Positions 3,128 through 42,174 of a DNA stretch of 64,000 nucleotides are shown piece after piece. How positions within the stretch are numbered: the first letter of the stretch is position 1; the number at the start of each line of letters is the position of its first letter. The stretch spans positions 38,359 through 102,358 of the forward strand of contig CANRAU010000004.1 in NCBI GenBank assembly GCA_947628665.1, in the 5' to 3' direction. Below the pieces are notes generated by a model. It searched no databases and was not told the origin of the DNA. It saw only the letters and a program-made list of their open reading frames with translations. A program made the position numbers and the translations under genes. The DNA comes from an uncultured Clostridia bacterium (GTDB lineage Bacteria; Bacillota; Clostridia; Oscillospirales; Acutalibacteraceae).

Positions 3128-5692
3128 TTATCCCTTTGCGTCATACCACGTTTTGCCGATGTGCGCGTCGCTTCTCAGGCGCACCTTCATTTGGCAGGCA
3201 TTTTCCATTTCCCGGGAAACGATCTCCTTGACGCGTTCGGCTTCCTCCTCGGGCGCTTCGACGATCAGTTCGTCGTGCACCTGCAAAATCAGCTGTGCGC
3301 GCATATTTTCGGCTTTCAACTGTCGATACACACGGATCATGGCAATTTTAATAATGTCCGCCGCCGTCCCCTGGATAGGCATATTCCGCGCGACGCGTTC
3401 CCCGAACGCCCGCAGCATCCCGTTGGAGGAGGCAAGCTCCGGCAAATACCGCCGCCGCGCAAACAGGGTCGTGACGTAGCCGTCCTTTTTCGCCTGTTCC
3501 ACAATGCGTTTCATATAGGCGTCGACCCCTGCGTAATGGTGCAGATAATCCTTGATATACTTGTCCGCCTCGGCGCGCGTGACGCCGATGTCCTTACTCA
3601 GAGAAAAAGCGCCGATGCCGTACACGATACCAAAATTGACCGCCTTGGCACGACTGCGCATCAAAGGTGTGACCATCTGCAGGGGCATACGAAACACCTG
3701 CGAGGCCGTCTCGGTATGAATGTCGGTATCCGTATTGAATGCCTCGATCATCGCTTTGTCGTCGGCGATGTCCGCAAGCACACGCAGTTCAATTTGAGAA
3801 TAGTCCGCATCGACCAGCACCTTGCCCTCGTCAGCCTTAAAAAATTTGCGCATTTCACGCCCCAGATCCTGCCGCACGGGGATATTCTGCAAATTCGGTT
3901 CGGTGGAGGAAATGCGCCCCGTGCGCGTCTCCGTTTGATTGAAGCAGGAATGGATGCGCCCGTCCGCACCGATCACCTTTAAAAGCCCGTCGCAGTAGGT
4001 GGATTTTAATTTGGCAAGGGTGCGGTACGCGAGGATATGCCGCACGATCTCATATTCCCCTGCCAAGCCCTCCAACACCTCAGCATTGGTGGAATAGCCG
4101 CTTTTGGTTTTCTTTTTTGTGGGAATTTGCAATTTGACGAACAGGATTTCCCCCAACTGTTTGGGCGAATTGATGTTGAACGTCTCGCCCGCAAGCGCAT
4201 AAATGGCGTCCTGCAATTCAGCGACCTTTTCCGTAAGCATTTCGGAAAACTGCTCGATGCCCGCTTTATCCACCAAAACGCCCACCCGCTCCATAGAAGC
4301 AAGCACCTCGGCAAGCGGAATTTCAATGGTTTCCAAAAGGTCGAGCTGTTCATTTGTCTCCAGACGCGCGACGAGCTTTTTGCACAGGGAAATAAGATTC
4401 GCGCAATCGTTTGCAAGCGCGTCCTCCGTCTCGGCGGCGGCAAAGACAGTGCAATATTCCTGAATCAGGCGATGCAGATCGTAATCCTTGGCCGAAGGAT
4501 TCAGCAGATAGGCGGCGAGCGTTACATCCATACGGACGTTTTGCACGTCTGTCCCATTCGCCATGCCGAACGCATAGACCTCCTTCGACGAATAGACGTA
4601 TTTTTCCGTGTTCGCATCGGACAGGAGTGCAAGGAAATTCGCCTTTTGCGCGCTGTCGGTCAAGTCCGCACGCAAAACAAAGCCATCGGCGGCAAAATAG
4701 GCGGTATCGGCGGACGGCAGGATCAAATACGCCCGTCGCTGCACGACGACCTGTGCCGCAGAGGACAATCCTGCTCGGAAAGACAGCTTGGTCGGTTCTG
4801 CCGTCGCTTGCGCAACGCCCGCGTCATCCGAAAGATGCAGTTTTTCCAAAATCTTGAACATTTCCAAAGAGACGAGTATCCCCGTGGCCTCCTGTACATT
4901 CGGAGGGTCTTTGACATACTGCGAAAGCGCGGTATCGATGGGTGCGTCTAATTCGATCGTACCGAGTTTATAGCTCAAATATGCAGAATCTTTCCCGTCA
5001 AGCAGTTTTTGCCGCATACCCGCTTTGATTTCGGGGGCGTCGATGTTGGCGTATACGCCGTCCAGAGTTTGGAATTGTTGGATAAGCGCTTCGGCGGTTT
5101 TCTTGCCGACGCCCGCAACGCCGGGAATATTGTCGGAACTGTCGCCCATCAGCGCTTTTATGTCGATCATTTGCCGGGGCGTTACGCCGTATTCCTCCCG
5201 AATTTTGGCAATGTCGTACACATTGGTTTCGGGACGCCCCATTTTGGTTGACGCCAACAGCACCTGCACATTTTCGCGCACCAGCTGTAAGCTGTCGCGG
5301 TCGCCGGTCGCGATATAGCAGGCGTCCTCCGCTTTCGTGTGCGAAGCGAGCGTACCAATCAGGTCGTCCGCCTCAAAGCCTTCTTTCGTAACGATCCGAT
5401 AGCCGAGCGCGGTCAGCAATTCCTTGAGTACGGGCATTTGCTCGGCAAGCTCGGGCGGCATCCCCTTTCGGTTCGCCTTGTAGCCGTCATACATCAAATG
5501 CCGAAAGGTTTTTGCCTTTACGTCAAAGGTGACGGCGACCGCGTCGGGCTGCACATCCTCCTCCAGCTTCAGCAGGATGTTCATAAAGCCGTAAATGGCG
5601 TTCGTGAAGCGTCCGTCCTTTGTGGTCAGCAGCTTGATCCCGTAAAAGGCGCGGTTCAAAATGCTGTTTCCGTCCAACACCAAAAGTTTCAT
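3128..5692 (-). CDS. polA: DNA polymerase I
   Basis: 854 aa. It has an N-terminal 5'-nuclease domain (LLVLDGNSILNRAFY). Family-A polymerase motifs are DYSQIELRVLA, RSRAKAVNFGIVYG and QVHDELIVE. Confidence 0.95.
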   Translation of the reverse strand: MKLLVLDGNSILNRAFYGIKLLTTKDGRFTNAIYGFMNILLKLEEDVQPDAVAVTFDVKAKTFRHLMYDGYKANRKGMPPELAEQMPVLKELLTALGYRIVTKEGFEADDLIGTLASHTKAEDACYIATGDRDSLQLVRENVQVLLASTKMGRPETNVYDIAKIREEYGVTPRQMIDIKALMGDSSDNIPGVAGVGKKTAEALIQQFQTLDGVYANIDAPEIKAGMRQKLLDGKDSAYLSYKLGTIELDAPIDTALSQYVKDPPNVQEATGILVSLEMFKILEKLHLSDDAGVAQATAEPTKLSFRAGLSSAAQVVVQRRAYLILPSADTAYFAADGFVLRADLTDSAQKANFLALLSDANTEKYVYSSKEVYAFGMANGTDVQNVRMDVTLAAYLLNPSAKDYDLHRLIQEYCTVFAAAETEDALANDCANLISLCKKLVARLETNEQLDLLETIEIPLAEVLASMERVGVLVDKAGIEQFSEMLTEKVAELQDAIYALAGETFNINSPKQLGEILFVKLQIPTKKKTKSGYSTNAEVLEGLAGEYEIVRHILAYRTLAKLKSTYCDGLLKVIGADGRIHSCFNQTETRTGRISSTEPNLQNIPVRQDLGREMRKFFKADEGKVLVDADYSQIELRVLADIADDKAMIEAFNTDTDIHTETASQVFRMPLQMVTPLMRSRAKAVNFGIVYGIGAFSLSKDIGVTRAEADKYIKDYLHHYAGVDAYMKRIVEQAKKDGYVTTLFARRRYLPELASSNGMLRAFGERVARNMPIQGTAADIIKIAMIRVYRQLKAENMRAQLILQVHDELIVEAPEEEAERVKEIVSREMENACQMKVRLRSDAHIGKTWYDAKG

Positions 5693-30880: not shown

Positions 30881-31312
30881 TTACTTTTTACGGTTGCATT
30901 GCTTATCAAAGCTCGGATTGAAGGCGTAGAAGTTCTTCTCATTCAGCCGATCGGTCGCCAAACGCAAGCCCTCGCCGAAGCGCTGGTAATGCACGATCTC
31001 GCGTTCGCGCAGGAATTTGATCGGATCGCGCACATCGGGATCGTCAACCAGACGCAGGATATTGTCATAGGTCGTTCTGGCCTTTTGCTCAGCCGCCAAA
31101 TCTTCGTGCAGATCGGTGATGACGTCGCCCTTGCTCTGAATATATGCGGCCGTGAACGGTACGCCTGCCGCAGACGAAGGATATACGCCTGTGGTATGAT
31201 CGACAAAGTAGGCGTCAAATCCGCATTTCTTGATTTGCTCGTCGCTGAGACTGCGCGTCAGCTGATAAACGATCGCACCGATCATTTCCAAATGTCCCAG
31301 TTCTTCCGTACC
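30881..31312 (-). CDS. cotJC: cotJC 3' segment (codons about 62-204 of a Mn-catalase-family spore coat protein), separated from its 5' segment by the inserted element
   Basis: From G-TEELGHLEMIGAIVYQL onward it matches the CotJC/Mn-catalase family (AAGVPFTAAYIQSKGD, EDLAAEQKARTTY, FLREREIVHYQRF). The 40 in-frame codons upstream (31313-31432) are unrelated and lie inside the element. Confidence 0.85.
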   Translation of the reverse strand, partial: GTEELGHLEMIGAIVYQLTRSLSDEQIKKCGFDAYFVDHTTGVYPSSAAGVPFTAAYIQSKGDVITDLHEDLAAEQKARTTYDNILRLVDDPDVRDPIKFLREREIVHYQRFGEGLRLATDRLNEKNFYAFNPSFDKQCNRKK

Positions 31313-31331
31313 CAGAGAAGCATCGAAAATG
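31291..31331. repeat. attL-like junction (host cotJC / element left end)
   Basis: The plus strand reads AATGTCCCAGTTCTTCCG-TACC-C-AGAGAAGCATCGAAAATG. TACC (31309-31312) is repeated at 41244-41247. The arm at 31314-31331 is the inverted partner of 41227-41244. Confidence 0.7.
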
Positions 31332-31481
31332 TTCCACAGGCCCAAAATGGCGGACAAGCCCCTTATTTTGGCTTTCCGGTACATACCTTTACGACCTCGG
31401 ATAAGGTTTGGCTGTAACACCCCTACTGCCAAGTCTGTAGTGGACTTTCACCACCAAGTTGTAATGCGCGCCGAGCGCACA

Positions 31482-31521
31482 AAGAAAGGGGCTGTATCAA
31501 AACCCCTTTCTTGTGTTTTTT
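31482..31521 (+). terminator. rho-independent terminator just inside the element left end
   Basis: A 10-bp stem AAGAAAGGGG/CCCCTTTCTT with an 11-nt loop is followed by GTGTTTTTT. Confidence 0.65.
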
Positions 31522-31553
31522 ATTTGGCAAAATCTTCTTCCGCATACCGTCGC

Positions 31554-32702
31554 GTTTTTCTACCTTATGAAATTACACTACTCTCAAACTAAAGAACTTC
31601 GTAAAAGATGACCTTCTCGTTTGTCTACCTTATGAAATTACACTACTCTCAAACCATAGCAACACAGTATTATGATCAGCTTGGTTTGTCTACCTTATGA
31701 AATTACACTACTCTCAAACGAAGCACGCACCGCCGACGTTCCACGGCAAGTTTGTCTACCTTATGAAATTACACTACTCTCAAACTGAAGTGATAGGGTC
31801 TTTCGAGAATACTAGTTTTTCTACCTTATGAAATTACACTACTCTCAAACAGTACTGGATTTTCCCGTATTGGTTCGTGTTTTTCTACCTTATGAAATTA
31901 CACTACTCTCAAACCCGTTTACGTTATTTTCAAGGCTCAAACCCGTTTTTCTACCTTATGAAATTACACTACTCTCAAACAGAATGTGAAAAGCTGAAAT
32001 TTTCTTCGGGTTTTTCTACCTTATGAAATTACACTACTCTCAAACTCGCTTACACATATTCTGCATATGGTAGCGGTTTTTCTACCTTATGAAATTACAC
32101 TACTCTCAAACCGGTTCGGATTGTTTGCAAAGTATTCATCGTTTTTCTACCTTATGAAATTACACTACTCTCAAACGACATTGCTAGTGTTATGGAAAAC
32201 GAGCCTGTTTTTCTACCTTATGAAATTACACTACTCTCAAACACTCATATGCAAAAACCGTCGACGACGCAAGTTTTTCTACCTTATGAAATTACACTAC
32301 TCTCAAACACTCATATGCAAAAACCGTCGACGACGCAAGTTTTTCTACCTTATGAAATTACACTACTCTCAAACTACCGCGAGGTCACACAAGCGATCAC
32401 GCCGGTTTTTCTACCTTATGAAATTACACTACTCTCAAACAGCCCTGTTCAAGTCGATGTTGACGGTGAGTTTTTCTACCTTATGAAATTACACTACTCT
32501 CAAACTGACTTCCGCAAATTTTTGCTTTAACCCTTGTTTTTCTACCTTATGAAATTACACTACTCTCAAACTGGCGCGTCTGTTTTCACAACTGAAATAG
32601 GTTTTTCTACCTTATGAAATTACACTACTCTCAAACCACATACCCATATGTTGCGTTGTGCGTCGAGTTTTTCTACCTTATGAAATTACACTACTCTCAA
32701 AC
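31554..32702 (-). CRISPR. CRISPR array, 18 repeats of 36 nt and 17 spacers of 28-30 nt
   Basis: The plus-strand repeat is GTTTTTCTACCTTATGAAATTACACTACTCTCAAAC, which in crRNA sense is GTTTGAGAGTAGTGTAATTTCATAAGGTAGAAAAAC. Repeat starts are 31554, 31619, 31684, 31750, 31815, 31879, 31945, 32010, 32076, 32141, 32207, 32273, 32339, 32405, 32470, 32536, 32601 and 32667. Minus-strand transcription is inferred from cas gene orientation and the tracrRNA anti-repeat. Confidence 0.97.
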
Positions 32703-32787
32703 CTCAAATCGCACAGGAGAATAAACGGCGGACACTACAAACCGTCGGGCAATTTCATAAGATAATTATATAATAAAACAATTCTTA
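32703..32787 (-). promoter_or_regulatory. CRISPR leader
   Basis: An 85-nt AT-rich spacer lies between the csn2 stop and the first repeat. The last leader bases in crRNA sense read ...GCGATTTGAG immediately before GTTTGAGAG. Confidence 0.6.
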
Positions 32788-33459
32788 TCATTTTTCAACT
32801 ATTTCACACAGATCACTGTCAACTATATACACCGCCTCCTTAAGCAAATTTCCAAAGCATTTTTTGTTTTCTATCAAAAGAATGTTAACATTCTGATAAA
32901 CAAGCTCGCTGAAAAAAAGTTCCAACTCTCCAGGCGTAAAGCAACTGTGCATGTTCAAAAACACAAAGCATTTGACCGAAGTGTATTTTTTCATAAGTTT
33001 AACAAATTCAAGGACCTTCTCAGGTATATCTTCGTTTCCGAGATCCGGCTTAAGGCATTGAATTTTAAATAGATCGGCAAGATCCAGTTCTTCCTTAAAA
33101 GTAAAATCACAGTCAAAACTCTCGTTTAACTTTTCAAGAAAAGTAAGAACATCGGCTTTTAGCGTAGCTGTTTGATCAATCATATAATTACATGCATAGA
33201 ATGTAAAATCTTCATACAGTTTCTTTATAAGAGAAGAAGAAAAATCAAGGCTGTAAAGATTAGGCACAAAACAAACATTACCCTTAAATCTCAGAGGTTC
33301 ATAGTTTTCGGAAAACACTATGCCGCAGTTTTTCGGGCATTCGGAAAATAAATTTACCACCGTATTTCTGTACAGTCTCTGATTTTCAATATACAGTGAA
33401 CTTGCTTTTTCCGACGAAAGCTCTATCGGTTCGGATAAAAAGTCAAAACTTACCATCAT
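32788..33459 (-). CDS. csn2: Csn2 (type II-A marker protein)
   Basis: 223 aa. It occupies the position after cas2 and before the array, and its size and acidic, Phe/Leu-rich composition are typical of short Csn2 proteins. It overlaps the cas2 stop by 4 nt. Confidence 0.75.
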   Translation of the reverse strand: MMVSFDFLSEPIELSSEKASSLYIENQRLYRNTVVNLFSECPKNCGIVFSENYEPLRFKGNVCFVPNLYSLDFSSSLIKKLYEDFTFYACNYMIDQTATLKADVLTFLEKLNESFDCDFTFKEELDLADLFKIQCLKPDLGNEDIPEKVLEFVKLMKKYTSVKCFVFLNMHSCFTPGELELFFSELVYQNVNILLIENKKCFGNLLKEAVYIVDSDLCEIVEK

Positions 33460-33776
33460 AATATTAAAAGCCTTTCATCGCTGTCAACAACATTGCCAAC
33501 GCTTTTTCCGGATATTATTTCCATTTTAGAATACTGCTTTTCCGTTATGGAAAGTATATACACTATACCTTTTTCCGGCTGCGCTTTTTTAACATCGGTA
33601 ACTATCTGCACAACCTGCGTTGAATTAAGGGCAAGCTTGGAATAAACGGATTCCTGTATCATCATAAAACCGCCTTTTATAAGAAATCTTCTGAATTTAC
33701 TGTAATTTCGCCTGTCGGCAGCCGTTTCCGTGGGCAAATCAAAAAATACCAAAACTCTCATAAATCTATAACTCAT
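33456..33776 (-). CDS. cas2: Cas2
   Basis: 106 aa. The sequence begins MSYRFMRVLVFFDLPTET...IQESVYSK, typical of type II Cas2. Confidence 0.9.
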   Translation of the reverse strand: MSYRFMRVLVFFDLPTETAADRRNYSKFRRFLIKGGFMMIQESVYSKLALNSTQVVQIVTDVKKAQPEKGIVYILSITEKQYSKMEIISGKSVGNVVDSDERLLIL

Positions 33777-34644
33777 AGCTGTAAAATCTTATAAGCGCCG
33801 TATCTTCGCTTTCAACAGCATCAAAAACACTTTTTGAATAAATTTTAATTGTGTTGAGTAGGGATTGCTTTTTTCCGTCAACAATGAATTCCTCACTTAA
33901 AAGCCTGAGAATCCGTTTCTTTTCCTCACTTTCAAATTTTTCGGGAGAAAGTGATTTTACCGCCCTGTCGATTATCGGACGAAAAGGTTCCATAATATCA
34001 CAGCCCAAATTAAACTGATTGAACATATTGTTGTGATGCAAACCGAGCATCGTTGAATATCCGCAGCACACTATTTCCCGGTTAAAGCAAGAAAGAATAA
34101 TGCTGTAGCCGTAGTTAAGAGCGGCATTTACAGGGCACTCATCGCTTCTTGAAAATTTTTTGCCAAAAAGAGCATTAAAATACACTTTGGCGGAATGCCC
34201 CTCCCGATTTGTTTCGTCGTTAAATTCGATTCCATCAATATACGAATACAGTTTTGATGCCTCGGGAATTTTAAAATACTCCAGATTCATAGCCTGCATT
34301 TTTATTTTCTGTGTAACGATGGCCGTCCAAACTGCCTGCTTTGAAAGCTCGCTCCATGCAAGCTGATTTCTGAATTTCAGCGAGCAATCGTGGCAACCGT
34401 AATATGAAACGAGCTCCGACGAAGGATTTTGCTTTTCATCGCAAAAAATCACCTTTATTTTTTGCTTTGTCAACTCGCTCAACAAAGCGGCTGTAACGGA
34501 GGACGCGGTATTTTCAATGATAAGCACCGATATTTCGCTTATATGCACGCGAACGGAACCTTCGGCATCGCGCACCACCATATATCCGAGCCTTAAATCA
34601 AGCTTTGATGATTTTGAAACTACCACAGTCCTCCAGCCCATCAT
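33766..34644 (-). CDS. cas1: Cas1
   Basis: 292 aa. Motifs are GWRTVVVS...LDLRLGYMVV and a C-terminal NAALNYGYSI...DIMEPFRPIID. Confidence 0.9.
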   Translation of the reverse strand: MMGWRTVVVSKSSKLDLRLGYMVVRDAEGSVRVHISEISVLIIENTASSVTAALLSELTKQKIKVIFCDEKQNPSSELVSYYGCHDCSLKFRNQLAWSELSKQAVWTAIVTQKIKMQAMNLEYFKIPEASKLYSYIDGIEFNDETNREGHSAKVYFNALFGKKFSRSDECPVNAALNYGYSIILSCFNREIVCCGYSTMLGLHHNNMFNQFNLGCDIMEPFRPIIDRAVKSLSPEKFESEEKKRILRLLSEEFIVDGKKQSLLNTIKIYSKSVFDAVESEDTALIRFYSYEL

Positions 34645-34658
34645 TTTTTCTCCTTATT

Positions 34659-37600
34659 TCAACGAATTTTCATCAGATCAACTTCCTGCTCATAAAGCCC
34701 TGTTACGGATTGATTGATCAGCTTTGCAGAGCTGTAGCCCGATTGCAATTTATTGCTTATAGACGTTACGCCGCATTTTTTGGCCTCGCCCAACAATGTT
34801 AAATCTCCAATCATAACATTGGCGTGCAGAATATTCAGAATTTGCTTTATTACGCAACACTGCTGATACAGCGAAAGCACGCAAAAGTCTTCTTTTTTAT
34901 TCCGGAGCTTTTTACCGAGACTTGCAAATTTTGACTTGAATACGGTGTTTACCATTTTATCGGTTATCGTATTAAAAATATCCATATTCTTTTCCGCCTC
35001 GATTCCGTCATAGGCGGTTATTTCTTTTTCCTTTTTGATCTCATCGCATTTATTAAGATAGTTCATTATTGTTTTTACATACGATTCCCGCTCATCGCCA
35101 AGAACAAGCTGAACAGCAGGCTTGCAGACAATTTGTGATCCTCCATTGCTTTTTGAGCTTATATGCATTCTGAAGCCGTCAATGCTTATAAGCGCGTTAT
35201 ATTTTACACAAGGGATAAGTATTTTTACCGTATCTTTTTCAACACCGAGCCTTTCGGCGATGAATGCAACGGGGTCGGTAGTATATTCATTTTCTCTATA
35301 CTTATCCACAGGCTCAAAGGAGCGAATCTTTTTGCCTTTTTTATCCGTATATGCAACAAATGCAAAAAACGACGATGACGGAGCATTGTATCCGCCATAT
35401 TTTTCTATAGCAAGGCCTTTTTTGCGTTCCACCTGACCAAAGCCTTTTTTCAACGGATTCTGATCAAACAAACCACCCTGTTGTTTAAAGGCATATCGCG
35501 TGAATCTTACATTGTTTTTTGCCATAGTCGATCTTACCACACTGATCGATTTGTTGTTTTCTGTTTCCCACGCGCCCTTTGTCGGATAGTCAAACATTCT
35601 GTTAAAGCTTTGACGACCGCTTAGAATATCGGAATAAAACTTATGACTTGAAGCCTTTACCGTGTAAACGTTGCCTACAACGATATTGAGATATGCATCT
35701 TTTGCATGGTGAATATCGTTCACTTCTCTGCATTTCGGCATTTTAAAATCTTTTCTGAAATCGGACACAAGCCCCGCTTTTATATACTCCACGTCCGTTT
35801 CGGGGTAGCGTTTTTTCAAAAGCTGTGCCACCGCCTTTGTGGACTGCCTTGTTTCAACAAGCTGCCTGGATATAAATTCGTTTAATTCCTCTTCGGAAAG
35901 CGGCGTGTTTCTTACAAGGCGTTCAAATTTTCGCTTGCTGATGAGTTCCTTTGAGAGAAGCAGTTTCCAAAACGAGCGCATTTTTTCTCTGATTTCAGGG
36001 ATTATCGGATAATCATCTCCTTTCTTTTGATTCGCATCTTTGGAAACAAGCACTCTGTTGTCAATGCTGTCATCCTTTAGCTTAGAGCGCGGGAAAATAT
36101 GGTCTATATCATAGTTCGTGCTTAATTCGTCAAGATTTATGCATTCACCGGTATACATACACTTGCCGAACTGTGCGTAATACAGATAGAGAGCGTCGCG
36201 CTGCAAATCGTTTTCATTGGTATTTTTAAGGTTCTCATAAAGCTCTCCCTGTTCCTCTCCGCATTTTTTGTAGAGTTCGATCAAGCTTTGCTTTCTTGAT
36301 ATTTTTCTTTCCTTTTTGCCTTCAAAGCGCGTGACCTCGACGAATATCTTTTCGGGCGCGCCGCCCTGAATTTTTACGATTTCCTCAACTATCTGCATCG
36401 TCTGATAAATCGGCCTTTTTATTTTTGGCGAGACATACAGATCTTCAACCTCCTGCTTAAGCGAAGTAAATGCGCCAGCACCGTTTTCTCTGTCTATATT
36501 TTCTCTGAATTGATAATTTTTGCTGAGCAGTTTCATAAGATTGTCGTTTGTTTCCCAAAGGGCGTGTATAATGTTTGTCACCTCGCCGGTTTCGGGCAAA
36601 ACGCTTTCTATCCCTGTAAGCAGTTTTCGGGAAAGCCTGCTCCAGCCTGTAAATTTCAGCCTGCAAAGCTTAGTGATCTCTTCATCCGTTAATCTGCCGC
36701 CGTAATTCTTTTGAATCCTTTTTTTCAGCAGCTTTTTATCATCTCCGAATATAGTTATCGATTTTATGATATCTTCTTTGTCGCTGTCCGGCAGGCCGAT
36801 GAAATCAAGCTCCCTGTATGCCTTCAAACTGCTTTTGAAATCGCCGTCAACGCCCGAAATTACAACGTTTTCAAGCCCTTTTGCTCTGAAATAATCTACA
36901 AGCGCTTTATACGTGACCTTGTTTTTGCGCATAAACAAATCTCTGTATATCGACTGTTTCATTTCAACCGTGATCGGTTCACCGTCGGCTTTCAGATTGT
37001 TTAGCTCATTGAGCACCATATACGATGAATACAAAAGAGAGTTTTTGGGAATGACGTCCTCTTTAGGAAGATACGTGCATTTGCTTGTAAGATTATCTAT
37101 AAACTTTTCGGCGCTTGCATCGGTATCGACCACCTTTTCAAAATTCCACGGATATATTTTTTCTTTCGTTCTCACAAGCCAGTGCTTCTCGCTGTGTTCA
37201 TTGAGCGGGCCAACATAATAAGGTACTCTGAAACTGAATATATCGATTATCTTTTCGCTTACGGTTTTGCCGCTTTCATCCAATTCTTTAAGGAACGGTA
37301 GATATTCTTGCGCGTTTTTCAGTATCGCCTTAAGCTCTTCCCTGTTTATCTGCATAGGAATAACGGAATTGTTCTTGGTAACGTCCTTGGGCATAAATGT
37401 GCCTGCGTCTATTTCAGCAAACATTTTTACATATTTTTCATCCACGTCATCTTTTGGAAGCTGCTTTTTCAAAAATTCGCAGAAAAGTTCCTGCGAGCAT
37501 TTTTTCATAACCGGCTGTTTACTCGAATGCCCGGAATAAGCAAGATAATTATTCGTACCGCTTACATTTTCGTTAAATATCAAGTCATACTTTTCGGGCG

Positions 37601-38615
37601 CAAAAGCTTTTACATATTCTTTCAGCAATTTAAGATCGCTTTTGTGCTTGTTATATTCGTTTACCTTTGCAAAGGAGATATATTTTTTCCCGCCGTATAC
37701 ATCAGCATCGCCGCATATATCGGCAAGAACAGCCCAATCGTAAAGCGCTTTCAACTTTTCTATCAATTCAAACCTTTCACCGAAAAAGCTCTCATATATA
37801 TCGTGCTTTTCATCATAGCCGTTTTTGAAAGAAACGGTTTTTGCATCGGTCTTGTCAAATTCATCGGTTTGAAAAATGTTCTTGGCGTTGACTTTGGCTC
37901 CCGAAAGGAGATTCAGCAAGGCTGTCTCAAACGAATTTTCTTTTTTGCTCAATCCTAATTCCTTTATCAGCGCCTCGCTTTTTTGTTTTATTCCCAACGA
38001 ACGATCTTTCAGTATATCTTCTACAGACGATAAGTTTTCAGCATAAAGTTCGGAATCGTAATTATCCCTCAGATATGTATTTAGTTCTCTCCAAATCGCG
38101 GAAAAATCATTGTTGCCTGTTCCGAGATCATCGCTTTCAAAAAGAAAATGTCCTCTGTTTTTTACAATATGGCTAACCACAAGATAAACGAGCCTTACAT
38201 CGTGCGCAGCCGGATTAACGATCAATTCTTTGCGCAGATGATATATGGTAGGATATTCTTTATGATATTCCTTATCCGTATAATTCTTATCATTAAACAG
38301 GGAATATCTTCCTTCAACAGTCTTATCACCGTCATACAAGGCACTGTCCTTAAGCCTTTGAAAAAAGGATATATCGACTTTAGCGATTTCTTTATTAAAC
38401 AGCATTTCAAGGCATTCGAGCCTGAATTTGCTTCGCTGCCTTCTTCTGCGATCGCTTCTGTAACCTCTTCGTTCCGCCGCAGTCTCACCGCCGTCAAAAA
38501 GCCTTATCCCCCACATTGCGTTTCCCTTGAATTTTGGGATATGGTACTCCTCATCGGTAACCGCCCAGCCTATGGAATCCGTGCCTATATCGAGTCCCAA
38601 ATAATATTTTTCCAT
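34659..38615 (-). CDS. cas9: Cas9 (type II-A)
   Basis: The start is set at the ATG at 38615 (AGGGGGAG RBS). RuvC-I is YYLGLDIGTDSIGWAV, HNH is YDIDHIFPRSKLKDDSIDNRVLV, and RuvC-III is DIHHAKDAYLNIVVG. Length is about 1318 aa. Confidence 0.95.
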   Translation of the reverse strand: MEKYYLGLDIGTDSIGWAVTDEEYHIPKFKGNAMWGIRLFDGGETAAERRGYRSDRRRRQRSKFRLECLEMLFNKEIAKVDISFFQRLKDSALYDGDKTVEGRYSLFNDKNYTDKEYHKEYPTIYHLRKELIVNPAAHDVRLVYLVVSHIVKNRGHFLFESDDLGTGNNDFSAIWRELNTYLRDNYDSELYAENLSSVEDILKDRSLGIKQKSEALIKELGLSKKENSFETALLNLLSGAKVNAKNIFQTDEFDKTDAKTVSFKNGYDEKHDIYESFFGERFELIEKLKALYDWAVLADICGDADVYGGKKYISFAKVNEYNKHKSDLKLLKEYVKAFAPEKYDLIFNENVSGTNNYLAYSGHSSKQPVMKKCSQELFCEFLKKQLPKDDVDEKYVKMFAEIDAGTFMPKDVTKNNSVIPMQINREELKAILKNAQEYLPFLKELDESGKTVSEKIIDIFSFRVPYYVGPLNEHSEKHWLVRTKEKIYPWNFEKVVDTDASAEKFIDNLTSKCTYLPKEDVIPKNSLLYSSYMVLNELNNLKADGEPITVEMKQSIYRDLFMRKNKVTYKALVDYFRAKGLENVVISGVDGDFKSSLKAYRELDFIGLPDSDKEDIIKSITIFGDDKKLLKKRIQKNYGGRLTDEEITKLCRLKFTGWSRLSRKLLTGIESVLPETGEVTNIIHALWETNDNLMKLLSKNYQFRENIDRENGAGAFTSLKQEVEDLYVSPKIKRPIYQTMQIVEEIVKIQGGAPEKIFVEVTRFEGKKERKISRKQSLIELYKKCGEEQGELYENLKNTNENDLQRDALYLYYAQFGKCMYTGECINLDELSTNYDIDHIFPRSKLKDDSIDNRVLVSKDANQKKGDDYPIIPEIREKMRSFWKLLLSKELISKRKFERLVRNTPLSEEELNEFISRQLVETRQSTKAVAQLLKKRYPETDVEYIKAGLVSDFRKDFKMPKCREVNDIHHAKDAYLNIVVGNVYTVKASSHKFYSDILSGRQSFNRMFDYPTKGAWETENNKSISVVRSTMAKNNVRFTRYAFKQQGGLFDQNPLKKGFGQVERKKGLAIEKYGGYNAPSSSFFAFVAYTDKKGKKIRSFEPVDKYRENEYTTDPVAFIAERLGVEKDTVKILIPCVKYNALISIDGFRMHISSKSNGGSQIVCKPAVQLVLGDERESYVKTIMNYLNKCDEIKKEKEITAYDGIEAEKNMDIFNTITDKMVNTVFKSKFASLGKKLRNKKEDFCVLSLYQQCCVIKQILNILHANVMIGDLTLLGEAKKCGVTSISNKLQSGYSSAKLINQSVTGLYEQEVDLMKIR

Positions 38616-38629
38616 TCTTAAACTCCCCC

Positions 38630-38658
38630 TTGACAAAGCAAGAATTATGGATTATACT
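38630..38658 (+). promoter_or_regulatory. consensus sigma-A promoter of the tracrRNA, divergent from cas9
   Basis: TTGACA (38630-38635), 17 nt, TATACT (38653-38658). The -35 box lies 15 nt upstream of the cas9 ATG on the opposite strand. Confidence 0.65.
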
Positions 38659-38664
38659 TAAGGT

Positions 38665-38784
38665 ATCTCAACGCCTTATGAGATTACACTACAAGTTCAA
38701 ATAAAAATTTATTCAACCCGCCGTGAAAGCGGCATCACAGTGTGTGAGCGTGGCCTGCGATATAAGCAGGCCTTTATTTTTTTT
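38665..38784 (+). ncRNA. tracrRNA
   Basis: The anti-repeat CCTTATGAGATTACACTACAAGTTCAAAT (38674-38702) is complementary to the crRNA repeat, with one G:U pair and a 2-4 nt bulge. A small CCGC/GCGG hairpin follows, then the terminator GGCCTGC-GATATAA-GCAGGCC-TTTATTTTTTTT (38752-38784). The 5' end is inferred from the promoter. Confidence 0.8.
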
Positions 38785-39273
38785 AAAAATTGCGCCAATT
38801 TTTTCAACAAAATGTTACCATATTTTTCTAATTGTGTAAAGGAGAGGTTTCTTTGCACCGATTTTAGGACTTAAAAATCAGGTGAAAACAGCAGTATTTT
38901 TGTTTATGCTTTTGCCGTCCGATGTAACCTCACGGGATAAGCCGCCAACGGAGGTAAAAAGCTCATCTTATAATCGCCGCAGGTGAAACCACAATTTACA
39001 CCAAAATAATGCTGCAAAAGTGTGTTGTTATATGTAGAAACTCTCGGCGGGCGTTTTCTTATTAAGTGAACACCCCGTATCAGATTGCAAAAAAGAATTA
39101 GCCCCCTCGTTATCACGATGCGAGAATGGAATTTCGCATCGTATCAACGTTCTGTCAAGGCTTTAAGGATGGAGATTTTCGCCGGAAAATACGATCCGTG
39201 CCTTGACAGGTTGTTATATGGGACAATCACAGGCTCATATACTTATTGAGAACGAGGGAGGTGTTGGTAACTG

Positions 39274-39477
39274 TTGCATCGAGAATTTGTTTATGTGGGT
39301 GCTCCTGTCCCAGATTTGGATGGGCAGGAATACGCAGCGTTCCTTTTGAACATTCAAAAGTCAATCCTCTTTTCTTTGGAGCATAGAAAACTATTGACCC
39401 CTTCACAGCGGGAACGCTGTTTGGTTGCGCTTGAAAATCAGTACAGTCAAAAAGAGAGGAATAAGCGCCAAGCATAG
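39274..39477 (+). CDS. small hypothetical protein (67 aa) upstream of the recombinase
   Basis: A TTG start sits 12 nt after GAGGGAGG. The sequence is MHREFVYVGAPVPDLDGQEYAAFLLNIQKSILFSLEHRKLLTPSQRERCLVALENQY.... The stop codon lies in the loop of a terminator hairpin. Confidence 0.4.
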   Translation: MHREFVYVGAPVPDLDGQEYAAFLLNIQKSILFSLEHRKLLTPSQRERCLVALENQYSQKERNKRQA

Positions 39478-39492
39478 CCGCTTGGCGTTTTT
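39466..39492 (+). terminator. rho-independent terminator after the small ORF
   Basis: An 8-bp stem CGCCAAGC/GCTTGGCG with a 6-nt loop is followed by TTTTT. Confidence 0.55.
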
Positions 39493-39600
39493 ACATATAG
39501 AGAAATGTGCAAATTTGAAATTCGCACATTCGACAGAACCACCGCCCTTATTTACAATAGAAATAACGGCAGCAGAGGTTGCTGGGAAAGGAGTATTGGA

Positions 39601-41409
39601 ATGAACAAATACGAACTCTTAAACCAAGAGCGCAAATTCGTTGATAAGAAAAAACGAGTTGCGGCTTATTGCCGAGTTTCAACCGATAACGAAGATCAAG
39701 CAAACTCTTTTGAAAGTCAGCAGCGGTATTTCCGGCAATATATCGAGCGCAATCCCGATTGGGAACTTTATGAGATATTTGCCGATGAGGGAATATCCGG
39801 TACAAACACCAAGAAGCGCAAAGAGTTTAACCGCATGATTGCCTGTGCTAAAAACGGGGATTTTGATTTGATTATCACAAAAGAGATCTCCCGCTTTGCC
39901 AGAAACACGCTCGACAGCATTTACTATACCCGTGACTTGAAAAAGCATGGTGTAGGTGTTATCTTTATGAATGACAACATCAACACAATGGACGGCGACG
40001 CAGAGCTGCGCCTTGCCATTATGTCCTCTATCGCACAGGAGGAAAGCCGAAAGACCTCGGAGCGTGTGAAGTGGGGGCAGAAACGCCAGATGGAACAAGG
40101 CGTCGTTTTCGGCAGGGATATGCTCGGTTACGATGTCCGTGGCGGTAAAATGTATATCAATGAAGAAGGGGCAAAAATCGTTCGCCTTATCTTCCATAAG
40201 TTTGTTGTCGAGGGAAAAGGCACTCATGTTATCGCTCGTGAGCTTCGGGAGGAAGGCATTGAACCTATGCGGGTAAAGGAATGGCAGAACACGGTCATTC
40301 TCCGCATTATCCGCAACGAAAAATACTGCGGCGATCTGGTACAGAAAAAAACTTATACGCCGGACTTCCTATCCCATGAGAAAAAGTACAACCGTGGGCA
40401 GGAGGAATTCGTCATTATTAAAGATCACCATGAGCCAATCATTTCCCGTGAGCTGTTCGATGAAGCCAATCGGATTTTAGACGAACGCTCTTTATCGCCG
40501 GAGGGAAAGGCGAAGCACTCAAACCGCTATCCGTTCTCTGGAAAAATCAAATGCGGATGCTGCGGCGCAAGCTATGTGGCAAGGTATAAGACCCGCAAGG
40601 ACGGAAGCCGATATAAGGCGTGGCGTTGTCTGGAAGCCGCCCGAAACGGCAGCCCGCATATAGATAAGGCGGGCAATCAAGTCGGTTGCACAGCCCCAAG
40701 TATCCGAAACGAGGACGCAACACATCTCATGTATCTCGTTACCAAAGACTTAAAATTCAACCGGCAGAAAATCACGGATAACCTGCTTTCCATTATCAAA
40801 TCCATTATCGCTATGGATACCACAGGGTCGGATGTAGAAAAAATGAAAGCGAAAATCAAAGCGATCGAGGACAACCGAGCCAAGCTGATTGACCTCTATA
40901 TGTCGAATGTCATAACCAAAGAGGAATTTGCAGACGCCAGAGTAAAGTACGACAGTGAAATTGCCGAGCTGCAATCGGTCATCGACAGCATGGATAAACA
41001 GCAGGCACAGATACCGCAACAGCAAGAGCTTATCCAAGAGATAAGCGTGTCAATCAAAGAGATCATCGGCGGCGTGGAATACGAAGATGCGTTTTACAGA
41101 CGGATTTTAGAAAGAATAGTCGTGAATGACCGTGACAATATAGATGTATATCTGCATTTACTTCCAATCAAGTGGAGCTATACGGCTCTTAAAGCGTCAA
41201 AAAAAGCGTTAGCCCCTAAAATGGTTCATTTTAGGGGCTTCTCTACCTATATCCGTCAGCAGACCTTTCAGTTCCGCATAAGGCATAGAGAAGCGTTGGG
41301 AAAGATAGCGCAACGATGCACCCAATTCGCCGTCCGGCCCGCCATACTGGCTGATAATGATCTGTGCATATTTCGGGTTGGGGGTTTTGATTCTTACGGG
41401 ATACTGTAA
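39601..41409 (+). CDS. large serine recombinase (resolvase domain + recombinase domain + zinc ribbon + coiled coil)
   Basis: The ATG at 39601 follows GGAAAGGAG. The catalytic-Ser motif is VAAYCRVSTDNEDQ. Other motifs are ITKEISRFARN, IAQEESRKTSERVKWG and the Cys cluster KCGCCGASY...WRC...GC. The ORF runs 54 codons past the element boundary (41244) into antisense cotJC. Confidence 0.88.
   Translation: MNKYELLNQERKFVDKKKRVAAYCRVSTDNEDQANSFESQQRYFRQYIERNPDWELYEIFADEGISGTNTKKRKEFNRMIACAKNGDFDLIITKEISRFARNTLDSIYYTRDLKKHGVGVIFMNDNINTMDGDAELRLAIMSSIAQEESRKTSERVKWGQKRQMEQGVVFGRDMLGYDVRGGKMYINEEGAKIVRLIFHKFVVEGKGTHVIARELREEGIEPMRVKEWQNTVILRIIRNEKYCGDLVQKKTYTPDFLSHEKKYNRGQEEFVIIKDHHEPIISRELFDEANRILDERSLSPEGKAKHSNRYPFSGKIKCGCCGASYVARYKTRKDGSRYKAWRCLEAARNGSPHIDKAGNQVGCTAPSIRNEDATHLMYLVTKDLKFNRQKITDNLLSIIKSIIAMDTTGSDVEKMKAKIKAIEDNRAKLIDLYMSNVITKEEFADARVKYDSEIAELQSVIDSMDKQQAQIPQQQELIQEISVSIKEIIGGVEYEDAFYRRILERIVVNDRDNIDVYLHLLPIKWSYTALKASKKALAPKMVHFRGFSTYIRQQTFQFRIRHREALGKIAQRCTQFAVRPAILADNDLCIFRVGGFDSYGIL
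41227..41262. repeat. attR-like junction (element right end / host cotJC)
   Basis: The plus strand reads CATTTTAGGGGCTTCTC-TACC-TATATCCGTCAGCAG. The arm at 41227-41244 is the inverted partner (15/18) of 31314-31331. Confidence 0.7.
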
Positions 41410-41430
41410 TTTTTTCTCATATTGAAACAT
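41245..41430 (-). CDS. cotJC: cotJC 5' segment (codons 1-62)
   Basis: MFQYEKKLQYPVRIKTPNPKYAQIIISQYGGPDGELGASLRYLSQRFSMPYAELKGLLTDIG matches the CotJC N-terminus. As integrated, the ORF continues for 11 unrelated codons (REAPKMNHFRG) to a stop at 41209. Confidence 0.85.
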
Positions 41431-41433
41431 AGC

Positions 41434-41697
41434 TTACCTCACACACTCCTCTACATCCCACGGCCAGGGATTTTGCAGCCAGCTCGCGCCGCTGCCCGAA
41501 CGGGCGGTCAACGGGCCGTATTTGTCTTCAAAGGCTTCCTTTAACTGTTTGTATTTGACCATATATTTTTGAAGCCTTTCCATGGCTTCACAGTCGTCGG
41601 GATGCGTATCCAAATATAAGTGCAGTTCCCAAAGCACAAATTGTGCGGCGGAAAGCTCTTGCAGGCACTTTTCACGCTCAGTCATCATCATATACAT
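41434..41697 (-). CDS. cotJB: spore coat protein CotJB
   Basis: 87 aa. The segment LQELSAAQFVLWELHLYLDTHPDD is typical of CotJB. Confidence 0.85.
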   Translation of the reverse strand: MYMMMTEREKCLQELSAAQFVLWELHLYLDTHPDDCEAMERLQKYMVKYKQLKEAFEDKYGPLTARSGSGASWLQNPWPWDVEECVR

Positions 41698-41936
41698 TTA
41701 CCTCCCAAAAACGGCTTGTCGAGGTCGGGGAACAGCGTACCGCGGCTTAAAGCCTTGTCGGCCTCATACATGCACGTATCAATTTGAAACGGTACATATG
41801 CCATTGCGCTGACGGGATTTTTCGGCAGCTTGGAAAGCCCTGTATATACGGACGGGTCCGCCGCCGAACACGAAGCGCAGGAGGAATTTGCCTGTGCGCC
41901 CGCTGCGCAATAGTCCAAATAGTCTTTCAAAGTCAT
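41688..41936 (-). CDS. cotJA: spore coat-associated protein CotJA
   Basis: 82 aa. It carries the family signature AMAYVPFQ...ALSRGTLFPDLDKPF. Confidence 0.8.
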   Translation of the reverse strand: MTLKDYLDYCAAGAQANSSCASCSAADPSVYTGLSKLPKNPVSAMAYVPFQIDTCMYEADKALSRGTLFPDLDKPFLGGKCI

Positions 41937-42174
41937 GACTCCTTTTCTTTTTTTATCGGAACAATCCTTCTACAGCATCTTATGCCGCGTTCGGCGGTTG
42001 GTGCGGGATTTGGGACTATGTCTGCTCTGGAAAGAAGCGTTTCAAGGGTAAGCGCAAAATAGTCCACAAATTTTCCTGCGGATTTTTGTGGATTTGTAGC
42101 ATTGAAATGGCCCTTGTATTTATGTAGAATGAACATAAGAATCATTGAATCTCAGGGAAAAAGGAGAGAGGTCT

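Follow-up and report, generated by a model that had tools for sequence, protein, structure and literature searches.

Elements that interrupt sporulation genes are usually viewed as prophage relics without a clear benefit to the host. Here we describe an intervening element made up of a recombination module and a single beneficial cargo, a complete type II-A system of CRISPR (short palindromic repeats that are clustered and regularly interspaced) and CRISPR-associated (Cas) proteins. It lies in a 64,000-nucleotide (nt) stretch of DNA from an uncultured Clostridia bacterium (the window, to which all coordinates without a locus name refer), where it splits the coding sequence of the spore-coat gene cotJC, which is preceded by cotJA and cotJB. 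The family of cotJC-splitting elements is very common and barely described, and a second CRISPR type occurs in the elements of other species. The main interest lies in the size of this family, its modularity and its repeated capture of adaptive immunity.

The sigK intervening element (skin) of Clostridioides difficile resembles the locus in that both interrupt a sporulation gene of the mother cell and have a large serine recombinase (LSR) at one edge, and in containing a small gene of about 70 codons (CD1234 with 72 aa in skin, a 67-codon open reading frame (ORF) termed orf67 here). The LSR of skin, CD1231, is transcribed by sigma-A in all cells, and the 72-aa directionality factor CD1234 needs sigma-E and SpoIIID, which confines excision to the mother cell (PMC5025042). 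As judged from its motifs, the promoter layout of orf67 and the LSR in the window fits this experimentally shown circuit. CRISPR arrays without cas genes have been found inside skin, namely CRISPR 6 in strain 630 and CRISPR 10 in R20291 (PMC4556805), and an array in the element is also described in PMC5961336. The two elements differ in their target, which is sigK there and cotJC here, and in their content: skin comprises 19 genes (PMC5025042) and is reported to contain of a CRISPR system the array only, whereas the element in the window holds a complete CRISPR-Cas system and nothing else that can be recognised.

In Bacillus cereus ATCC 10987 the gene gerE is interrupted by gin, an intervening element of non-phage type (Abe et al. 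2017, PMC5595907). Its recombinase GirC and the small accessory factor GirX are both required for the rearrangement (PMC5595907). It has three recombinase genes, gerE as target and no described defence cargo, in contrast to one LSR, cotJC and a variable cargo in the family studied here. For cotJC itself a skin-like element has been mentioned in one sentence for Laceyella sacchari (Galperin et al. 2022, bioRxiv 10.1101/2022.02.25.481979). The same gene is split in both cases; L. sacchari, however, belongs to the Bacilli, and the passage concerned names no cargo, insertion point or family. By description the two are set apart, as the present elements form a family in gut Clostridia with an insertion point known to the codon and CRISPR-Cas among their cargo.

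The cassette recombinases (Ccr) of the staphylococcal cassette chromosome (SCC) are LSRs too, and the CRISPR-Cas system involved is of type III-A, as opposed to type II-A here. SCC inserts at the 3' end of orfX/rlmH rather than within a gene of development, and it is not known to be linked to sporulation. Anti-phage defences including CRISPR-Cas are mobilised alongside SCCmec in staphylococci according to PMC11470126, a likeness in so far as defence systems travel with recombinase-mobilised chromosomal cassettes. Although CcrB is the best NCBIfam match of the LSR in the window (E = 1e-38), the score of 133 bits is far below the cut-off of 900, so that the enzyme is not regarded as a Ccr recombinase. 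The II-A system shares with that of Streptococcus pyogenes SF370 the gene order cas9-cas1-cas2-csn2, a divergent trans-activating CRISPR RNA (tracrRNA), 36-nt repeats, spacers of about 30 nt and a leader on the csn2 side; only the genomic setting differs, between LSR attachment (att) sites within a sporulation gene. In the literature covered, which is incomplete, we came across neither an intervening element of a sporulation gene with a complete CRISPR-Cas system as its cargo nor an earlier account of a cotJC element family in Clostridia. The novelty supposed in the original prediction, which had been made from the letters of the window, has to be toned down, as the skin arrays without cas genes (PMC4556805) and the cotJC element of L. 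sacchari were already known.

Insertion into cotJC and the type II-A module

The element spans 31313-41247 (9,935 bp) and is inserted precisely between codons 62 and 63 of cotJC. When the two halves are rejoined in silico the reading frame is exactly restored, yielding a protein of 204 aa with 88-98% identity over 100% of the length to very many intact 204-aa homologues in the protein database. An uninterrupted cotJABC locus, L224 (86% nt identity), can be aligned to 41991-41238 with an immediate continuation at 31312-30880, the two alignments overlapping by 10 bp at the crossover core. This 4-bp core is all that attL and attR have in common. Around TACC the ends of the element make up an inverted repeat, imperfect and about 21 bp long, which is kept in all complete relatives; the attP arms read GGTTCATTTTAGGGGCTTCTC, TACC, CAGAGAAGCATCGAAAATGTTCC in the window and GGAACATTTCAGAGGCTTCTC, TACC, CAGAGAAGCATCGGAAATGTTCC in relatives. 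Inverted arms around a short core are typical of the attP sites of LSRs. Homology to relatives at the left end reaches to about 31408; it takes in between 25 and about 95 bp on the inner side of the left junction. Genes with housekeeping functions, for DNA polymerase I, DNA polymerase III alpha and Lon, flank the interrupted operon, and the host replicon is accordingly a chromosome.

Most of the element is taken up by the CRISPR-Cas module (Table 1). All four Cas proteins scored far above the Pfam and NCBIfam cut-offs, and the RuvC-I motif DIGTDSIGWAV and the HNH motif DIDHIFPRS of Cas9 are intact. The array contains 16 unique spacers among 17, sp11 being identical to sp12, and three slightly degenerate repeats at its csn2-distal end. 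Searched against the window and all fetched loci, the spacers gave only chance matches of 13-20 nt and no self-targeting. The predicted tracrRNA is preceded by a sigma-70-like promoter matching at 11 of 12 positions and carries the anti-repeat CCTTATGAGATTACACTAC, which pairs with the repeat at 18 of 19 positions, a nexus-like segment AAGTTCAAATAA and an intrinsic terminator; an Rfam scan of 31000-42000 (E <= 1) gave zero matches, leaving the RNA without an Rfam family. With the Cas9 nuclease domains, the cas1-cas2-csn2 operon and an anti-repeat tracrRNA beside the array, the module has the features of type II-A, and from its sequence the unit is complete and apparently functional. In the leader we noticed an inverted partial copy of the repeat (32744-32764, TCTTATGAAATTGCCCG), which is kept in the II-A loci L006 and L009 and would form a second anti-repeat-like segment on the pre-crRNA (precursor CRISPR RNA) strand.

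The CRISPR locus is compositionally foreign to its host. Computed GC content is 39.0% for the module and 40.7% for the whole element, as compared to 52.6% and 50.6% for the flanks. The original prediction had estimated this contrast by hand, correctly in its direction, but with a value for the flanks (55-68%) that is too high. It had described a complete II-A locus (cas9-cas1-cas2-csn2, divergent tracrRNA, leader, 18 repeats, 17 spacers) accompanied only by a 67-codon ORF and a recombinase, both Cas9 motifs being intact and the cas operon co-oriented with the cotJ operon. Each of these elements was found again at or near the predicted position, including the shared minus strand of the cas and cotJA-cotJB-cotJC operons, and phage, replication and conjugation genes were indeed lacking. 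The predicted interval of 31554-38784 covers the CRISPR module only and not the full element. Acquisition of the system from outside, as payload of the element, had also been proposed. This is supported in part: the foreign composition and the position between the cotJC halves agree with it, while arrival of the module as payload is an inference.

Table 1. Coordinates of the cotJC element, its CRISPR-Cas module and the interrupted operon
Feature	Position	Strand	Basis and remarks
cotJC 3' fragment	30881-31312	-	codons 63-204 and stop, starts TEELGHLEM; Pfam Mn_catalase; translation; collinear with L224 1241-1673; includes shared core
Crossover core, left copy	31309-31312		TACC (GGTA in cotJC sense); sole sequence common to both junctions
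Left attP-type arm	31313-31337		CAGAGAAGCATCGAAAATGTTCC; kept at left end of 10 complete relatives; inverted relative to right arm
Non-coding left-end stretch	31338-31553		hairpin AAAGGGG...CCCCTTT and T-run beside array trailer; also in L227; no ORF with family match
CRISPR array	31554-32702	-	18 repeats of 36 nt, 17 spacers of 28-30 nt; tandem-repeat and repeat searches; repeat in CRISPR RNA (crRNA) sense GTTTGAGAGTAGTGTAATTTCATAAGGTAGAAAAAC
Array leader	32703-32787	-	sigma-70-like promoter TTGAAA-17-TATTAT at 32798-32770
csn2	32788-33459	-	Pfam Cas_Csn2, E = 2.4e-18; TIGR01866, 122 bits (cut-off 35)
cas2	33456-33776	-	Pfam CRISPR_Cas2
cas1	33766-34644	-	Pfam Cas_Cas1
cas9	34659-38636 (ORF)	-	probable ATG start 38615 (1318 aa); five Cas9 Pfam domains; TIGR01865, 891 bits (cut-off 100)
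Predicted tracrRNA	~38666-38785	+	ends approximate; divergent, upstream of cas9; promoter 38630-38658, anti-repeat 38674-38692, terminator 38752-38785
Linker between CRISPR module and backbone	38788-39212		homology boundaries; unsupported 70-codon ORF 38904-39116 (-), no Pfam or PHROG match
Promoter-like block before orf67	39213-39263	+	GTTATA (-35 ATA 39216-39218), GGGACAA (39220-39226), CATATACT (39236-39243)
orf67 ribosome-binding site	39254-39263	+	GAGGGAGGTG
orf67	39274-39477	+	67 codons; candidate recombination directionality factor; terminator hairpin and T-run 39466-39492
LSR promoter	39530-39558	+	TCGACA-17-TACAAT, sigma-A-like
LSR	39601-41409	+	in-element 39601-41243 (548 aa); Pfam Resolvase PF00239, Recombinase PF07508, Zn_ribbon_recom PF13408
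Right attP-type arm and core	41222-41247		GGTTCATTTTAGGGGCTTCTC; right core TACC 41244-41247
cotJC 5' fragment	41244-41430	-	codons 1-62, ends LLTDIG; translation; collinear with L224
cotJB	41434-41697	-	Pfam CotJB; upstream in interrupted operon
cotJA	41688-41936	-	Pfam CotJA; upstream in interrupted operon

The recombination backbone and its family

Besides the cas genes, the array and the tracrRNA the element contains orf67 and the LSR, other ORFs being without support. Searches of all its ORFs against Pfam and PHROGs returned no phage structural or packaging, replication or conjugation genes, and the element classifies neither as a prophage nor as an integrative conjugative element. The LSR matches the integrases of PHROG 95 (E = 5e-134), and shows the serine motif YCRVST in its translation. 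A conserved AAGGAG...ATG sets its start, and at its other end it borders directly on the right junction. Its frame has no stop within the element and continues for 55 codons across the junction (41244-41409, +), antisense to the cotJC 5' fragment. Because the frame runs through the junction, the length of LSR homologues varies between 536 and 981 aa. In relatives inserted in the reverse orientation the LSR is fused in frame with the C-terminal part of CotJC, giving proteins with a Mn_catalase domain. Excision would alter the C-terminus of the recombinase. Annotators should be aware that both genes, cotJC and that of the recombinase, are routinely called wrongly, either as pseudogenes or as fusions of recombinase and catalase.

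Directly upstream of the LSR, orf67 is found in nearly all relatives with 41-98% aa identity, while the overlapping antisense orf82 is less conserved. The block in front of it is conserved to at least 90% per column over 67 distinct relatives and has the consensus cGTTATAtgG(G/T)ACAAnC-N6-CTCATA(C/T)A, followed by GAGGGAGGTG and an NTG start. This fits a -35 element ATA and a -10 element CATA separated by a 17-bp spacer. Clostridial sigma-E promoters have ATA at -35 and sigma-K promoters AC, a CATA-type -10 element being common to both at a classical spacing of 16-18 bp (Saujet et al., PMC3789822). The LSR promoter is kept as TTCGACA-N17-TATAAT or TATACT in most of 64 distinct aligned relatives. 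Conservation of sigma-E/SpoIIID-like motifs before orf67 and of sigma-A-like motifs before the LSR suggests a skin-like regulation, which would fit excision in the mother cell. The last ~100 bp of the linker (39114-39212), with two hairpins and a TTGACA box, are also present in L014, L022, L071, L074 and L087. In backbones of the L011 type, which do not have this stretch, TCGTTAT joins ATGGGACAA directly, and the inserted end recreates the GTTATA box.

Close relatives of the LSR number in the thousands at 75-97% identity. In a scan of one genome per species 408 relatives were confirmed, and the best 80 were fetched; their hosts are Lachnospiraceae, Oscillospiraceae and unclassified Clostridia living in the guts of animals and humans. 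Of 85 loci examined, at least 70 showed the order orf67, LSR, antisense cotJC codons 1-62, cotJB, cotJA. In dozens of loci the homology of the backbone sets in abruptly at 39213 and extends to the junction. Complete elements, for which both ends were identified, measure about 3 to 10 kb, and their content varies widely: 429 cargo ORFs fell into 268 clusters, with ATP-binding cassette (ABC) transporters, two-component systems, helix-turn-helix (HTH) and extracytoplasmic function (ECF) sigma regulators, multidrug and toxic compound extrusion (MATE) pumps and radical S-adenosylmethionine (SAM) proteins as common cargo. From this variable content between conserved ends we conclude that the element consists of a conserved backbone and an exchangeable cargo slot. 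The family also is a source of well-defined pairs of LSR and att sites with a candidate directionality factor.

Type I-C CRISPR-Cas systems are located directly upstream of orf67 and the LSR in two other species representatives, L053 and L083. Both comprise cas5c, cas8c, cas7, cas4, cas1 and cas2, their arrays number 59 and 67 repeats, and their backbones are 95% identical to each other. Downstream, L053 continues with the cotJC 5' fragment, cotJB and cotJA; the contig of L083 stops inside the LSR. Given type I-C in these two loci and type II-A in the window, CRISPR-Cas is a recurrent occupant of the slot that was captured at least twice. PADLOC matches on the cargo were mostly generic ATPase or HTH hits, and no wider claim of the family as a defence island was based on them. 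A PemK/MazF-like toxin ORF just upstream of orf67 in 27 relatives (e.g. L056:9136-9627), absent from the element in the window, may represent an addiction module.

Further observations concern the target site. In ten loci (L005, L030, L048, L058, L063, L065, L089, L171, L173 and L180) the cotJC 5' fragment is split once more, near codons 19-32, by another LSR that is unrelated to the first (26-34% identity). This makes the gene a hot spot twice over, for two families of LSRs, and nested or tandem elements can occur. One locus has an extra copy of the left end (L037:9364-9462, 78% identical to 31310-31407) just upstream of the backbone, its true left end being at about 4507-4598, which suggests tandem accretion of elements. 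In many of the closest relatives, from rabbit-gut metagenome-assembled genomes (MAGs; L011-L013, L015, L046 and L059), the contigs end within the LSR or at 0.3-1.7 kb upstream of orf67; such breaks would be expected if one sample holds the same backbone with different cargo. Four relatives (L002, L078, L090 and L176) are inserted in reverse orientation within cotJC. In L002 the LSR-proximal arm is kept and the core reads TAGG instead of TACC, i.e. with a flipped central dinucleotide, and in the other three the other att arm adjoins the LSR. Both patterns fit a non-palindromic central GG (cotJC sense) that would set the polarity of insertion. A palindromic core as the cause of reversed insertion was rejected on the same grounds, the flipped dinucleotide in L002 and the LSR at the other end in the rest.

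Proposed excision in the mother cell and other explanations

We consider it probable that the locus is a 9.9-kb non-phage LSR element in cotJC, composed of a backbone and a cargo slot holding a type II-A system, which by analogy to skin would be excised in the mother cell. At the level of the DNA letters the analysis demonstrates a precise insertion, intact att arms, an intact LSR, a complete II-A system, a modular family and a foreign composition; mother-cell excision we infer from the analogy. According to this explanation the LSR would be made constitutively from its sigma-A-type promoter, and orf67 would act as a recombination directionality factor produced in the mother cell only, from a sigma-E-type promoter with a SpoIIID-like box. 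Recombination of attL with attR would excise the element and rebuild cotJC in the terminally differentiating mother cell, and the forespore chromosome, as the germline, would keep the element together with its CRISPR memory. During vegetative growth this unit would serve as ordinary adaptive immunity. The same backbone would be shared, at this cotJC site, by hundreds of genomes of gut Clostridia. The slot would be filled by type II-A here, by type I-C in L053 and L083 and by transporters, regulators or toxins in most relatives.

In Bacillus subtilis cotJC is a mother-cell-expressed gene. Mother-cell expression is likewise documented for cotJC-type genes of C. difficile, where cotJB2-cotD-type operons depend on sigma-K (PMC3789822). 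An earlier excision driven by sigma-E would restore cotJC early enough. Were excision limited to the mother cell, the host would bear no cost in sporulation while the spore line retains the element and its immune memory, and the stable presence of a defence system inside an important gene would be explained.

Several observations weigh against this explanation. In the assemblies searched, neither an attB nor an attP junction of this species turned up, and the host is known from metagenome assemblies alone, its sporulation being presumed. The product of orf67 matches no family in Pfam, PHROGs or NCBIfam, and the assignment of its promoter to sigma-E and SpoIIID rests on resemblance to consensus sequences. 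In B. subtilis the SpoIIID consensus contains GGACAA. Compared to the C. difficile consensus KRTAACARK the G(G/T)ACAA box agrees at 7 of 9 positions (PMC5025042). As to immune activity, the whole array gave no protospacer in INPHARED phages (blastn, E <= 1), and four spacers or their 23-24-nt parts proximal to the protospacer-adjacent motif (PAM) gave no match in IMG/VR; since no protospacers matched, no PAM could be derived, and the spacer targets and PAM that the original prediction hoped to obtain were not forthcoming. A vehicle of transfer was not found either: catalogued phage and plasmid relatives of the LSR are all below 60% identity, the best listed being a Pusillibacter plasmid record (49.5%) and an unannotated faecal phage contig (48.5%), and a search of IMG/VR with a degenerate pattern found no free attP. 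The 14 matches to this pattern were discarded as chance, all being without flanking arms and LSR. Finally, the II-A loci most similar to the module (L006-L010) lie between unrelated chromosomal genes without LSR and without cotJ, so that joint transfer of II-A and backbone between species as one unit does not appear to be supported by the nearest relatives.

The most serious alternative, which we regard as unlikely, holds that the element is an ordinary site-specific island for which cotJC is a mere landing site, the gene staying inactivated and being tolerated since CotJC is dispensable or paralogues exist. LSRs are intrinsically site-specific, so a conserved target alone is no proof of developmental control, and an excision product was not observed. 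Insertional cotCB/cotD (CotJC-type) mutants of C. difficile moreover had no significant defect in coat formation, as quoted in PMC11222575. Against a simple landing site speaks the conserved sigma-E-type block before orf67, followed by a terminator and then a sigma-A-type LSR promoter, which is the arrangement of the proven skin circuit of C. difficile. As with all characterised intervening elements, the target also is a spore-coat gene of the mother cell, and excision in silico exactly restores its frame; insertion is very common among species, which argues for a low cost.

Mobility of the family is indicated by its distribution among hosts. The closest backbones (L011-L014; LSR 95-96% identity, 92-95% nt identity) carry other cargo and reside in hosts whose CotJB is only 37-48% identical to that of the window, whereas the most similar CotJC (98% aa, locus 86% nt identity) comes from an uninterrupted locus. 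This discordance between backbone and cotJ identity indicates recent horizontal spread. Because the family is abundant, uses one landing site and has near-identical backbones in distant hosts, it is a plausible and barely described route for the exchange of defence and resistance genes among gut spore-formers. A more far-reaching idea, which we put forward as speculative and rather improbable, is that cotJC elements act as a germline-safe shuttle of immunity among gut spore-formers, circles that are excised in every mother cell and set free on its lysis passing to other Clostridia. Such a shuttle would be a regular source of LSR-integrable immunity cassettes for neighbouring Clostridia, nearly all of which offer the cotJC site, and CRISPR-Cas of at least two types would be carried in its cargo slot and retained in the spore genome.

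The II-A module has its nearest relatives elsewhere than the backbone. The L006-L010 loci, from gut MAGs or contigs, are 84-85% nt identical to 31554-38787 and their hosts have a GC content of about 39-44%, similar to the module; no II-A genes were found in 85 related elements. As the nearest II-A loci and the nearest backbones differ, the module was captured by or swapped into a modular element. These differing relatives, together with module edges (31553/31554 and 38787) that are sharp in comparison to L006 and L009, might also be explained by a transposon-like CRISPR-Cas locus that inserted secondarily into a resident cotJC element with boundaries of its own. This we judge very improbable: the element contains no transposase and no second recombinase, no direct repeat of at least 9 bp surrounds the module, and its edges coincide exactly with functional limits, the array trailer and the tracrRNA terminator. 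The presence of type I-C in the same slot elsewhere moreover points to a general exchange of cargo and not to a mobility specific to CRISPR. Two outcomes had been named beforehand as contrary to the original prediction. The first, relatives of the CRISPR locus at other chromosomal sites without the recombinase, describes the closest II-A loci; of the second, backbones with 92-95% nt identity do carry other cargo, but a secondary insertion with its own boundaries was not seen. Its proposal of CRISPR-Cas as cargo is supported by type I-C in the slot of L053 and L083 and by the composite of LSR, linker and CRISPR module, which recurs at 99% identity in independent assemblies.

These assemblies, L226 and L227, come from other samples and were reached via P0361, a cluster mate of P0121; the latter is a 1318-aa protein 100% identical to Cas9 of the window, for which an exact look-up gave no gene on record. 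L226 is 99% identical over 40223-32674, from inside the LSR to the first array repeat, and L227 over 39415-32601, continuing with the trailer and left end to 31422. That a low-GC CRISPR contig was misjoined to a higher-GC chromosome in assembly or binning, as the sharp GC steps at both ends and the many related contigs breaking near the backbone might suggest, is hardly credible, as both independent assemblies reproduce the joins at 99% identity and the cotJC halves flank the element in correct order and frame.

The array of L227 (L227:6629-6946) has two repeats and one spacer, sp02 with one mismatch, as compared to 17 spacers in the window, which suggests array turnover by growth or loss, or else assembly collapse. 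A common human-gut II-A relative (L221-L223 and L091-L099; Cas9 66% identical, in a cluster of 1039 sequences) is located 1.4 kb downstream of another kind of LSR, which has a DUF4368 domain. This locus lacks cas2 entirely and cas1 for the greater part, both through loss, and retains cas9 and a cas1-csn2 remnant.

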